Below, in pieces: positions 26,562 through 47,100 of a stretch of DNA of 50,063 bases. The DNA comes from Basidioascus undulatus. Its lineage: Eukaryota. The translations under genes were made by a program, and so were the position numbers. The notes beneath the pieces were generated by a model that was not told the origin of the DNA, ran no database searches, and was given only the letters and a program-made list of their open reading frames with translations. The stretch spans positions 1 to 50,063 of the forward strand of contig JTLS01000017.1 in assembly GCA_000826855.1 (NCBI GenBank), read 5' to 3'. Position 1 is the first letter of the stretch; each line of letters starts with the position of its first letter.

Positions 26562-28202
26562 TCACCGCCGCTTAGGCCTGACCCTCCTCCCGTCGTCCTT
26601 CCTGCGGACCTCCATCTCGCGCCCCACAACCTCTCCCATACCCTCAAACACCTCGTCCAGTTCGCCCTCGCTCTCGTCCTCCCCCTCCTCCGCGGCATCC
26701 GCATCCCGTCCGCGCTTAGCCGTGCCCGCCGCAACCGGCTTCGGCACGACCCCGTCCCACACGATCGCCGTCGGCTGGGACTTGACGAAAACCTTGCAGA
26801 GCGTCTCGCCCTTCGTCGTGGCGTTCTGTCCGGCCTTGACGGGCGCGGACGGAGCGGTGTGCAGTCTGACGAAACGGTCGAGGGAGGCGGAGGCGAGGTA
26901 GGAGGGTGCGGAGGCGGTGCGGGAGGTCGACGCCAAAGACGAGATAGAGCCGGCGAGGCCTGGTTTATCCCATGCATCATCATCAGAGTGGGTTAACCTC
27001 TTTGAGAGAAATTCAAGTATGGACGAACCTTTGTGGTTGCCCAGGACATTCCCGTTCCGCGTGTCGACCGTGAAGAGATTGCTGCGGTCATCGCAAACGA
27101 AGACCTCGTGCTCCCCCGCGCCCTTCTCGACGCGCCGCACCGAGCCCTCGCGCACGATCTTGTCCCACACGCCCACCGGCCGGCGCGCAGCCCGCGTGTC
27201 GTACAGCCGTACTGAACCATTCGCGTTGCCGGTGACGAGCGTCGCCTGCGCGGGCGCCAGCGAGGCGGAGAGGTAGGCGAGAGAGGTGATGTGTATGGGA
27301 ACGCGGAGGGAGAGCGAGTCGTTGGGGAGCTATACAAAGGCCATCGGGGCGTCAGTAAATTTGAAAACTGCAGTCCATCGTGAAACACGAAACGAAGAGG
27401 ACGTACGTTCTTGGCCCGCCAGACTTCACCCCAAAGCAGTTCCTGCGCCTTTGCCTTCCGCAGCTTCTTGGCCTCCTTCCCAGTGAGGCCCTCGTCCCCA
27501 GGCGCGCCGCTTGCGCCCTCTGTGGGTGCGCCCTGGCCCGCCCGCTCGACATCCCACAGGGAGAGGTCGACTTCGTTCCCTCCGTAGGCGAAGGAAGCCT
27601 GATTGGGGGAGAGGCGGAGTTCGGAGAGGCGGGAAGAAAGGGAGAGCAGCGTAGGGGTGGAGATGGAAGATGCGGAGAGGGTGGGTTGGAATCGGAGGAG
27701 GCCGGAGGAAGTGCAGGTGAGGATGCTGCGGGACCGCCCGTGTGAGCGAATTATGGCGCTGGCGATCATTAAGGGAGGCAAGTACTTGTTAGAAAGCTGG
27801 TCCAGACCAACGAAGGCGTCACCCTTTGCAGAAGAGGAGGGCCGGTCCTCCGTGTACTGCAGCACGGTCTCGACAGTAACGCCCTTGCCCCTCTCCAGCT
27901 CCGGATCCTCGTCCGTCACGCTCAGTACCTCCACGCTCATGTTCGCGCGGGCGACTACGAGCTATGTCCAATATTCCAATATCAGATCCCTATTCCCTGA
28001 AGGTTTGAGTAGCCTTAGAACGCACCTGCTTTGTCTCCGAGTTCCATGCCAGGCGCTGCACCTCGCGCTCCTTTGCGAGGGGAGGGTTGCCAGCCAGCAG
28101 CAGCTGCCGGGGCGCGACGTCGTCGGTGGGCGAATTGAGTGGCAGTGCTATGGACTTGAGCAGTCCATTGGCGTCTCCGGTGAAGAATCGAAGGGAAGAC
28201 AT
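26562..28202 (-). CDS. NSA1: Ribosome biogenesis protein Nsa1 / WDR74 (WD40)
   Basis: Motifs MSSLRFFTGDANGLLKSI, FAYGGNEVDLSLWD, WRAKN-LPNDSLSLRVPIHIT, RLYDTRAARRP, GSISSL and LASASLDRFVRLH. Confidence 0.9.
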
Positions 28203-28339
28203 GGCGGTTGAGGAACCGGAGGCAAGCAGGGCAGGAAGAGAGCGAGCAATCTCGTCCAAAAGCGCGGGAAAAGTTGAAGTGCCTTCGCTGTCGAATACCG
28301 CCTTCAACTTCGATCGTCGACGCGCTTTGCTTCGCTGAC

Positions 28340-28652
28340 TGGCTCAAGACGCTCTGTGAAAGCAGTGTGGTCCCGCTACCAAAAAATTGAATTGATTAGC
28401 TGGGGCTCGTAAAATGCGCGAGATGGGACTCGAACCCATACGCCCTCTCGGGCACGGGATAACTTGGGTCTGCAAAACCTTAAGGCCCGCTCGGCTAGCC
28501 ATTTCGACACACGCGCTGTTTTGAGGCAGGCGTCGATAAACAAATAAACTGTTGAATTCCAGTCCGCATCTCGCGGATTTTACGAGCGCCAGCGAATCAG
28601 TTCAATTTTTTGGTAGGGGGACCGCACTGCTTTCATAGAGCGTCTTGAGCCA
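28340..28652. repeat. Imperfect inverted repeat, arms 28340-28434 and 28557-28652 (~95 bp, ~90% identical), overlapping and enclosing the tRNA
   Basis: The reverse complement of the right arm aligns to the left arm with 8 substitutions and 1 indel (TGGCTCAAGACGCTCT...CTACCAAAAAATTGAA...CTCGTAAAAT.CGCGAGATG.GGACT.GAA). Confidence 0.95.
28415..28516 (-). tRNA. tRNA-Leu(UAA) with an 18-nt intron (28478-28461) after position 37; atypical structure
   Basis: The minus strand folds as GCGCGTG-TG-TCG AAATGGCTAGC CGA-G-CGGGC CT TAA G[intron]A TCCCG-T GCCC GAGA GGGC GT-ATGGG TTCGAGT CCCAT-CTCGCGC-A. It has a long variable arm, discriminator A and downstream T4 and T6 terminators. Confidence 0.85.
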
Positions 28653-30414
28653 ACGTGAGCCCGGGTTGAATAGAAACCTGCTCGATGTACGCGATGAGAG
28701 TGAAGTTTGAGTGAAAGATAGCTGGATCCTGGATCTCTCGAACATCGAAAAAACTTGCTTTCTCCTAATTACACCATTTCTGGGACGTTTCAATAATCAC
28801 TTAACGCTTGGTGAGGTGGTTGTGGATGTGCGGCTGGCACGGTCCAACGCAGGCGCAGCCTGTCGCTCGCCCTCAGAGGCGGGCAATGTCAGATTGCAGC
28901 ACGTATTTTTGTATTCCTTCTAGATGATGCTGCTATCTATTTACTTGAAAGAGTCTTTCTTCAAAGTGTTAAAACCCTTTTCTTTTTCACCTCGTGCACA
29001 GTAGGTGTCTATCCTGTCTAATGCTGTGGAGCGTGGTGTCTTTGCTGAGTTGACGCCGGTACGAACAGAAAAAAGGCTTTGATAAATACTGACAATCACT
29101 GCTGGACAGACAGAACGCTATCTTTTGATTTGAAACTTTGTACGCAGTCCCTCTTTCAACAGCGGTTTCGAGTCCCACAGACAAGCTTCTTTCCTTGACT
29201 TGTTCCTGAAGTGGGTGAGCTGGGCCTGCACACATGTTTCAGAAAGGTGTAGGGTTTCGTCCCGCGGTGAGATCTTTCTCATACGTGGAATCGGTAGGCC
29301 TGCTCCAACCGCCTGCAGCTTTTCTCGAAACCACGCAGGAAAGCCTACATATACAGGTCTTCCGAGCAGGTTGACGTGGTAACATGACAGTATGGCGAGA
29401 GTTGCATCTGCTGCCCAATTTTCTTCTGCAAGAGCTTTGGTGTCACTTCCCCTTTCAGCATTGCAAGACCTCTCAGCACTGAGCAAGGGTGTCTGGATCA
29501 TGCGACAACCTTCCCTGTTCACAGCGCAATCTCAGCTCCTCAGCTCCACCTTGTGCTCCCTTAGCAAGACATTTAAGTATCCTGTGTCAGAGACTATTGC
29601 TTAGCTCATCTCTCTATGCAGCCTACCGTTTTGCCTGTCTGATGCTGTTCGCATTCAATTGGACACGCTTGGGACCCGCCGCTCCTTGGTGACGGGACAG
29701 ACCTGGTTACCGACGTCCTAATACTGCCGTGGACAGAAAAAGCCACGTTTATAAGTAAGGCGCCTTTGTTACTGCATCCCGTTTCGTCAGTGACCGGACT
29801 CTCCGCCGCGGATCTGATCGCAGCCATCAATCTGCCGATCCAGAAGGATGCCAACACCTCGATGGTGAGCTGCCTTGCCGTGTTGAATGAAAAAAATCAG
29901 ATGTAAGAGGTAATTTATCTAGGTGCTTCTCAATCTTTAACGGAGCGACCTGTCCGAGAGCGACTACGCACTCCCAGCACCATTACATTGCGCCTCTGCC
30001 TTACTTCCTGTTAAAGCCACTTGAGCCTTCCGCCCTAACCCGATAAACATTTTTATTTCTTGAATACTATCATCCCGGTATTAACTTCTCCTTCTCCTCG
30101 CATTTATAGTGGTTGTACGCTCGTTGAGCTTAATGCGTGTTTCTCTCACTGCAAGTGCTAAGCAGATGAAGATGAGCTGATGCCCGTGACGGCTTCCGGG
30201 AGCGTACGAGACCCAATTTCGCCCAGCGGAACGTTTCATGCGTGCCGCTTAGACTAAAGAATCAAAGAATTCAATGGCCATTAGCCAGCGAGGGGCCACG
30301 TCCAGTCGCGCCACATAGGGACGATCTTCTCGGTCCGTCGATTAGGCACTGGATACCTCAACCTTTCAGCGATCTTCTCGATCTTCTGCCTTGCTCCCTC
30401 TCTTGTTCACCGCC

Positions 30415-44166: not shown

Positions 44167-47100
44167 ATGGCGCCCGTTGCGATCGACCCTGTGTCGATGG
44201 ACGTCGACTCGTCCCCTGCCGCTCCCATTTCCTCCAAAAAGGCGTCCAAGAAGGCCAGCGCCGGCACCCCCTCCGCCTCCTCCAAAAAGTCCCGCCCCTC
44301 CACGGTCGCTGCCGCCGCCGAGGTGGACCCCGAGACAGCCAAGGCCGAGCGGGCGGGACACACCTTCAACACCCTCCGACGCGAGCGGACCTTCCGCCAG
44401 CCGACCGAGCTCGGGTCGGACTTCCCCGCGCTGCACGAGCTCGTCGCGCCCCACATCGAGAGCTTCAACATGCTGTTCGAGGACAGCGACGGCGGCAAGG
44501 GGCTGCTCGAGCGCGCTGTGGAGGACATTCCCTCCAAGGTCATTTTCGATGGGAAGGGCGAGGTGGGCGTGGAAGGGCGGAATTGGGGGAACCGGTTGGA
44601 GAGTGAGTCTCGTTCATTTCAGTGCCATCTCCATGTCCGGTTGCGAGCGTGCGAAGACGGCTTGTGTTCCGCACGGTCACGGCTGCAGCTGCTTTCGCGA
44701 GAGCGATGAATAGTCGGCTGATGCATTTTCCGCAGTTCGGATCGCTGGCGTCACGATAGCGAAGCCGATGGTGCCAGAGAAGGACAAAACTTCTACGGAC
44801 CGTCGTGTCTACCCCTTCGAGGTTCGCAGTTCACTGCATTTCAAACTGGATCGAAATGCTCACCCTTACCTCAACGACTTCAGGCTCGAGAACGTCTGAC
44901 TACCTACCGCTCGAAGATGACGGCGAAGCTGCGGTGGTCGGTCAACGGCGGTCCTGAGCACGAGGAGGTGCGCGAGTGTGGGCTGGTGCCGATCATGGTC
45001 CGGGTGCGTTAGCTTTTCCCATAATGCTGGATTTTGCGCCGCGCATGGCTGAACATGAGGATTCCAGTCGAACCGCTGCAACCTCCAGCGTGCCACGGCG
45101 GCGCAGCTCGTCGCGAAGCACGAGGAGGCGGAGGAGATGGGCGGCTACTTCATCGTCAACGGCAACGAGAAGCTCGTCCGCTTCCTCATCATTCCTCGCC
45201 GTCACCACGTCATCTCCATCATCCGTCCCTCCTTCGCCAACCGCGGCCCGACGTACACGCAGTACGGCACGCAGATCCGCTGCGTCCGTCCCGACGAGAC
45301 CGCCGTCACCAACACCGTCCACTACCTCTCGAACGGCGCCGCGACGCTCCGCTTCGCCTGGCGCAAGCAGGAGTACATGCTCCCGATCGTCATGGTCCTC
45401 AAGGCGCTCATCTCCGCCTCAGACCGCGACATCTTCGAGTCGATCGTCCAAGGCGACTACGAGAACACGTTCCTCACGGACCGTGTCGAGCTTCTGCTCC
45501 GCGGCTTCAAGCCCTACGGCCTGTACACGGGCGAACAGTGCCTCGACCACCTCGGCGAGAAGTTCCGCGTCGTCCTCGGCTGCCCCGATGACTGGCCGAA
45601 CATGATGGTCGGCGCATTCCTCATCCGCCGCGTCGTCCTTGTCCACCTCGAGGAGCCGCGCGACAAGTACCAGATGCTCATGTACGCGTTGTATCTGCGC
45701 TTGGAGGTGTGAGCTCTTACTGACAGTCGCCTTCGGTTTCACAGCTTCATGCTCCAGAAGCTCTACTCGCTCGTCTCGGGCAAGTCGTGCGCGGACAACC
45801 CCGATTCGCCGCAGCACCAGGAGGTCCTCCTCCCCGGTTTCCTCTACGGCCAGATCATCAAGGAGAAGCTCGACGAGGCGCTCATGGGGGTCACCGCTCA
45901 GCTCCGTCAGGACGTTCGCCGCGAGTCTGCTGGCGTCGACTTCCGGGATAGTGAGTCGCCGTGCGCCTGCTGTTCCGAGTTTCTAGCGCACTGATCCATT
46001 ACTGCCGCCTTTAGACCGCTACGTCAACAGGGTCGTCCAGAAGACCAACTTCGACATCGGCGCGAAGCTCAATTACTTCCTCGCGACCGGCAACCTCGTC
46101 TCGCCGACCGGTCTCGATCTTCAGCAGGCGTCCGGCTTCACCATCGTCGCCGAGAAGCTCAACTTCTACCGCTACATCTCCCACTTCCGCTGCATCCATC
46201 GTGGTGCCTTCTTCGCCGAGCTGAAGACCACCACCGTCCGCAAGCTGCTGCCCGAAGCGTGGGGTGCGTCTCGTCGATTCCCACTCTGAGGAGCGTTGGG
46301 CTGACATTGCCTGCTGCAGGCTTCCTCTGTCCCGTCCACACGCCCGATGGCTCGCCCTGCGGTCTCCTCAACCACCTCTCGCGCTCGTGCCGAATCATTA
46401 CGAGCAACCTCTCCGCGTCCGCGTCGAAGATCCCCGCGCTCCTCTCCGAGCTCGGCATGACTCAGGCGTTCGCCCCTCGCGTCGACGGGCTCAACAACGT
46501 CGTCGTTCAGCTGGACGGTCGCGTCATCGGATGGGCGAGCTCGCGCCTCGCCCGGCACATGGCGACCGTGCTGCGGATATGGAAGACCGAGTGCCGCCGC
46601 GACGTCCCGCACGACCTCGAGATCGGCCACGTCCCGCTCAGCAAGGGCGGTCAGTTCCCCGGTCTCTACCTCTTCACCTCGCGCGCGCGCATGATGCGCC
46701 CCGTCAAGTACCTCCTGAACGGCCGCGCCGACTCCGTCGGCTCGTTCGAGCAGGTGTACATGGACGTCGCGTGCGTGCCGGACGAGATCGAGAAGGGCCT
46801 GACGACGCACGTCGAGGAGACGCCGACGAACGTCCTGTCCGTCATCGCGAACCTCACGCCGTTCTCCGACTTCAACCAGTCCCCGCGTAACATGTACCAG
46901 GTGTGTCTCATTGCTATCGCAGCTGTGGCTTTCGGCTGACGTTGGTCTACTTCCGCAGTGCCAAATGGGCAAGCAGACGATGGGCACGCCCTCGACCGCG
47001 ATCACGCGCCGGACGGACAACAAGCTCTACCGCATCCAGACCGGCCAGACGCCGATCGTCCGGCCAGCCCTGCACAACAAATACGGCATGGACTCGTTCC

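Follow-up and report, generated by a model that had tools for sequence, protein, structure and literature searches.

An inverted partial copy of a tRNA-Leu(UAA) gene and its trailer in Basidioascus undulatus, a probable scar of local templated duplication

In the nuclear DNA of the basidiomycete Basidioascus undulatus, a tRNA-Leu(UAA) gene is enclosed between its own 3′ end with the adjoining trailer and an inverted copy of the same sequence, next to an NSA1-like gene. Such an arrangement raises the question of whether the two arms serve as a hairpin RNA or simply record a past event in the DNA. The original prediction left both readings standing: either a hairpin RNA that could regulate the tRNA or NSA1, or a scar left behind by fold-back or by an insertion event; the evidence presented here leans towards the scar, and the hairpin RNA found no support. 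The window, by which we mean the whole stretch of DNA that was analysed, is contig JTLS01000017.1 of assembly GCA_000826855.1 and comprises 50,063 nt. Searches of an open-access library listed no title or abstract opening about a tRNA gene of a fungus that its own trailer encloses as an inverted copy. In kind, the feature is an ordinary one.

The tRNA-Leu(UAA) gene and its inverted partial copy

The tRNA-Leu(UAA) gene is the sole tRNA gene detected in the 50 kb by ARAGORN with introns allowed (Table 1). It carries a 24-nt intron (window positions 28455–28478) at the canonical site after position 37, that is, after the G next to the anticodon TAA, and ARAGORN run without introns found no tRNA in the window. 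A local scan with the Rfam model RF00005 returned the same coordinates as ARAGORN with 37 bits, where the gathering score is 29; the gathering scan with this model over the whole window missed the gene, presumably due to the intron. Two mismatches are present, U6·U67 in the acceptor stem and A13·C22 in the D stem. These aside, the sequence looks like that of a normal working gene with an intron. An A/T-rich block lies at about −20 to −33, within the 40-bp region upstream of the tRNA. The T4 run directly behind the tRNA is taken here to be the likely Pol III terminator, and the T6 run further along the trailer its likely back-up.

Table 1. Coordinates of the features at the tRNA-Leu(UAA) locus (window positions).
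Feature	Position	Strand	Remarks
NSA1-like gene, first exon	28026–28202	−	ATG at 28200–28202; exon end predicted at the first in-frame GT before the stop
Left arm, presumed template	28340–28434	−	3′-terminal 20 nt of the tRNA, then 75 nt of trailer
T6 run	28381–28386	−	Trailer +29 to +34; copied into the right arm at 28604–28609
T4 run	28411–28414	−	Trailer +1 to +4, directly 3′ of the tRNA; read from the sequence
tRNA-Leu(UAA) gene	28415–28516	−	ARAGORN with introns; Rfam RF00005
Spacer (hairpin loop), 122 nt	28435–28556	−	5′ 82 nt of the tRNA (28435–28516) and 40-bp upstream region (28517–28556)
GTTGAAT, inner copy, candidate direct repeat	28551–28557	+	At the right arm's inner edge
Right arm, inverted partial copy	28557–28652	+	Sense on the plus strand; repeat search, blastn and local alignment
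GTTGAAT, outer copy, candidate direct repeat	28665–28671	+	13 nt past the aligned end of the right arm

The tRNA part of the left arm consists of the T loop, the 3′ strand of the T stem and the 3′ strand of the acceptor stem. A repeat search delivered a core of 86 nt with 92% complementarity (28340–28425 versus 28567–28652), and blastn together with local alignment extended it to arms that are identical at 87 of 96 columns (90.6%, E = 2e-32). The right arm occupies −41 to −136, with a gap of 40 bp to the tRNA 5′ end, and 137 nt lie between the end of the left arm and the NSA1-like ATG. The original prediction had described an inverted copy, some 95 bp long, of the T-arm, 3′ acceptor strand, terminators and about 75 bp of trailer, placed roughly 40 bp upstream of the gene, with the left arm about 140 bp upstream of the NSA1 ATG, and each of these measures is borne out. 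It had further reported 8 substitutions and 1 indel spread along the arm, a copied B box broken from TTCGAG to TTCCAG and three transitions that would all be G·U wobbles in a plus-strand transcript. Alignment over the 96 columns gave the same counts and the same wobbles, and the altered B box is visible in the sequence.

The 601 bases from 28200 to 28800 recur with 0 differences in one contig each of two public sequencing runs, dated 2014 and 2025, of which at most one is independent, since either may be the source of the window. The inverted repeat is therefore real DNA and no assembly quirk of the window. Other inverted pairs in the 50-kb window do not exceed 49 nt or 77% complementarity, and blastn detected no further copy of either arm there. 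The word AAAAAATT occurs twice in the 50 kb, once in each arm (28381–28388 and 28604–28611). A 14-nt segment at 29164–29177 is 93% complementary to the T arm of the tRNA; blastn rates this match no better than chance (E = 8.4), and no tRNA was called there.

The 8 substitutions between the arms comprise 3 transitions and 5 transversions, and with the single indel they amount to a divergence of about 9% (Jukes–Cantor distance 0.089). Three of the differences fall in the 20 nt of the tRNA part and six in the 75 nt of the trailer, a difference in density that rests on small numbers. The 3 transitions, wobbles on the plus strand, are mismatches on the minus strand; by chance, all three would be wobbles with a probability of 1 in 8 for a named strand and of 1 in 4 for either. 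At the remaining 6 of the 9 differences (the 5 transversions and the indel) pairing is broken on both strands. The 3:5 ratio of transitions to transversions is the opposite of what a stem under selection would be expected to show, and with six differences that break pairing on both strands the pattern bears no signature of such selection. RIP-type mutation was ruled out as well, transitions making up only 3 of the 8 substitutions and the repeat being short; RIP has a repeat size requirement. As a side observation, G↔C transversions account for 4 of the 8 substitutions, an unusual spectrum in a small sample, and the plus strand carries G in the right arm at 6 of the 8 differing sites, again a small number.

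Towards its far end, the copy runs from the 3′ strand of the acceptor directly into the T4 run and 75 nt of genomic trailer, not into CCA. Since the genomic trailer is present and CCA is not, the source of the copy is DNA or a precursor transcript, and an origin from mature tRNA or from the primer-binding site of a retroelement is excluded. At its other end the right arm starts in the T loop and consequently has no A box. Neither ARAGORN nor Rfam called a tRNA in it. Lacking an A box, with a broken B box and with no tRNA call, the copy is no independent Pol III gene and is predicted to be inert. Nor does it contain the internal Pol III promoter (A and B boxes) by which a tRNA-derived SINE is recognized, and an A-rich or simple-repeat 3′ tail is not present.

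Origin of the inverted copy

The repeat is probably the fixed, neutral and non-functional scar of a single local inverted templated duplication, of which the neutrality and the mechanism of origin are what we infer. A break or a stalled fork would have arisen upstream of the tRNA gene, and repair of the break or restart of the fork would have proceeded by fold-back or template-switch synthesis on neighbouring DNA in inverted orientation. About 96–107 bp, corresponding to the template strand of the 3′ end and trailer of the tRNA-Leu(UAA) gene, would have been copied to the region 41 bp upstream of this gene. The insertion would have been tolerated because it spares the tRNA gene, the terminators and, between −20 and −33, the A/T-rich block, all of which are intact, and the arms would then have drifted apart to their present divergence. 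As is characteristic of a local fold-back insertion, an inverted copy is found near its template, separated from it by a 122-nt spacer, and no other copy occurs in the window. The microhomology at the inner junction is today at most 2 nt (TT/AA), to which it may have been reduced by the subsequent divergence of about 9%; the fold-back mechanism has no direct footprint in the present sequence. One point that speaks against a scar is the 90.6% identity of the arms, which could also reflect constraint or homogenization between them.

In yeast, templated inverted insertions are formed at DNA breaks by fold-back synthesis adjacent to the break, and these events, taken from experimental repair products, are mostly 5–34 bp long (Yu et al., 2024; PMC11724301). 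The present locus resembles the yeast insertions in being a single locus at which adjoining DNA served as the template of an inverted copy. It differs from them in its length of 96–107 bp, its 122-nt spacer, its fixation in a natural genome and its divergence of about 9%, and in that microhomology at the junction is unrecognizable here (PMC11724301).

A second partial tRNA 3′ end near a tRNA gene is also known from the attL/attR partial tRNA duplicates of prokaryotes, which are direct repeats of the tRNA 3′ end around an inserted cargo. The copy described here, unlike those, stands in inverted orientation on the upstream side of its gene, takes in 75 nt of trailer, encloses no cargo and resides in a eukaryote. 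If it is a scar, which is the most likely case, its importance is slight, and its interest would be that of a clean natural example of a templated inverted insertion of about 100 bp beside a tRNA gene. Close inverted repeats beside a Pol III gene also constitute a potential fragile site.

Instead of a duplication made in place, the locus might owe its structure to a mobile element, which we consider unlikely. Either the 313-bp unit or one of its arms would then derive from a dispersed MITE, foldback or SINE family, or a retroelement would have inserted at this position; for the latter, the right arm would be a 5′-truncated copy of a read-through tRNA precursor, placed by an element whose targets are upstream of Pol III genes. 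In other eukaryotes, retroelements that target tRNA genes insert in a zone that includes about −41, where the insertion point falls here, and the truncation of the copy at its 5′ side would agree with such an origin. The copy, however, has no A-rich or simple-repeat tail, and its T4 and T6 runs would stop Pol III. Like MITEs and foldback transposons, the locus is short (313 bp) and non-coding and has a long inverted repeat at each end (96 columns, 90.6% identical). Unlike these elements, it shows no flanking target-site duplication and no sign of other copies, and one of its arms is part of a working tRNA gene. That the tRNA between the arms has the look of a normal, intron-bearing gene also speaks against a mobile element.

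Target-site duplications, for which the original prediction had suggested a search, were not found around the unit as a whole, where no word of 6 nt or more is shared between 28300–28348 and 28645–28700. The 7-bp direct repeat GTTGAAT surrounds the right arm alone. This pair could be the target-site duplication of a 107-bp insertion but is no more than a hint of one, since in a lenient test the probability that windows of this size in this sequence share a 7-mer by chance is about 0.1 (10%). Contigs that match the stretch at 80% likeness or more number one in X1 (2014), one in X2 (2025) and none in X3, so that the two runs, of about 34 Mb each, yielded no further contig. As a measure of copy number this search has weak power: the second arm of a contig is itself unreported, and short partial matches may escape.

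A two-step history, in our view quite unlikely, would begin with a larger inverted duplication that gave rise to two divergent tRNA-Leu genes arranged head to head. A later deletion, taking the 5′ 80 nt of the right copy together with part of the shared upstream region, would have left the remnant from T loop to trailer that is seen today. This would account for a right arm that starts within the body of the tRNA and continues into the trailer in the manner of a truncated gene copy, and the denser differences in the tRNA part (3/20 versus 6/75 nt, small numbers) would fit a copy freed from selection. Against it, two events are needed where one suffices, the copy and the tRNA 5′ end are only 40 bp apart, and by blastn the spacer shows no residual similarity to the 5′ part of the tRNA. 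The single local inverted duplication remains the preferred account of how the copy arose.

The two arms as a hairpin RNA

That the locus is a functional hairpin RNA gene appears very unlikely. Such a gene would produce a Pol II transcript across both arms, with an imperfect stem of about 95 bp that is diced into small RNAs, which would have as their target either the tRNA precursor or trailer or the 5′ region of NSA1. Folding of 28340–28652 was proposed in the original prediction, and both strands do fold into a long stem, at −205.3 kcal/mol for the plus strand (z = −17.8) and −191.6 kcal/mol for the minus strand (z = −15.5). The stable fold is no independent evidence, because any inverted repeat with 90% identity folds in this way, and it follows trivially from the repeat. 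The difference of 13.7 kcal/mol between the strands arises because the 3 transitions wobble on the plus strand. That all three transitions keep plus-strand pairing, and that the plus strand folds better by this amount, agrees with a hairpin RNA and is a point against the scar. At 6 of the 9 differences, on the other hand, the pairs of the stem are lost whichever strand is transcribed.

Pol III promoters of the tRNA type (type 2) start transcription downstream of the −41 to −136 region occupied by the right arm, and a Pol III transcript would terminate at the T4 or T6 run, no more than 34 nt into the trailer. Judged from this layout, an RNA with both arms could come only from Pol II; the best candidate would be a plus-strand transcript that diverges from the NSA1 promoter and is antisense to the tRNA. 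An orthologous locus was searched for in metagenomes with a 23-nt pattern of the tRNA 3′ end, and none was present among the loci listed, at least 103 in number. Their matches to the window cover only 28–45 nt of T arm and acceptor and represent unrelated tRNAs.

A precedent for a stem that encloses a tRNA gene is provided by pri-milR-4 of Neurospora crassa (Yang et al., 2013; PMC3547838). There, milR-4 is situated between two tRNA-Ala genes, with the star strand behind the second, and its precursor is a Pol III transcript that is processed by RNase Z; the upstream tRNA-Ala gene drives it, and it is transcribed together with both tRNAs (PMC3547838). Both are tRNA-linked fungal loci in which the arms of a stem flank a tRNA gene. 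Compared with milR-4 as presented there (PMC3547838), the B. undulatus locus has one tRNA gene in 50 kb, its arms copy the tRNA's own 3′ end and trailer, one of these arms contains terminator runs, and it is known from its sequence alone. The milR-4 route does not fit here because the 50 kb contain no second tRNA gene, and hence none upstream to drive the transcript, because the right arm lies upstream of the transcription start and because the T4 and T6 runs stand inside the left arm; all of this speaks against a milR-4-type hairpin made by Pol III. Should RNA data reveal a diced hairpin, the locus would be a basidiomycete counterpart of the tRNA-linked milR-4 pathway. The boldest version strikes us as highly improbable: in it, the one tRNA-Leu(UAA) gene of the window forms the loop of a hairpin of about 95 bp that Pol II transcribes on the plus strand, diverging from the promoter of NSA1, a ribosome-biogenesis gene. 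This self-targeting relative of milR-4, made from the tRNA's own trailer, would yield small RNAs that link RNA interference to NSA1 or to the supply of a rare-codon tRNA.

Host DNA and neighbouring genes

Eukaryotic genes are distributed across the window and include PCI/CSN4, TRAPPC10, MutL and RPA2 domains. The best matches of the RPA2 fragment (45995–46936) are to basidiomycetes of several classes, with an identity of at most 73%. From such comparisons, the fungus seems to represent an isolated lineage of basidiomycetes, its own proteins being absent from the protein collection and a close annotated relative lacking. The NSA1-like fragment (27371–27940) has three protein homologues with 36–50% identity, likewise from basidiomycetes of several classes; one of the three is named NSA1 in UniRef, and together they speak for this name. 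Neither the 322-aa nor the 315-aa open frame of the NSA1-like gene has a match to Pfam or to solved structures.

To the right of the repeat, 12 open frames between 29121 and 32354 contain no Pfam family above the cut-off. Candidates for this stretch of about 2.5–3 kb are an extended intergenic region, a gene for a non-coding RNA and a decayed element. The word GCGATGAG at 28691–28698, about 490 bp upstream of the NSA1 ATG, resembles the PAC motif of yeast ribosome-biogenesis promoters. With 7 occurrences in the window versus 3.8 expected, its frequency is not significant, and GCGATGAG was rejected as a ribosome-biogenesis promoter signal. The G+C content between 28500 and 30500 is 0.47–0.52, versus about 0.60 for the window.
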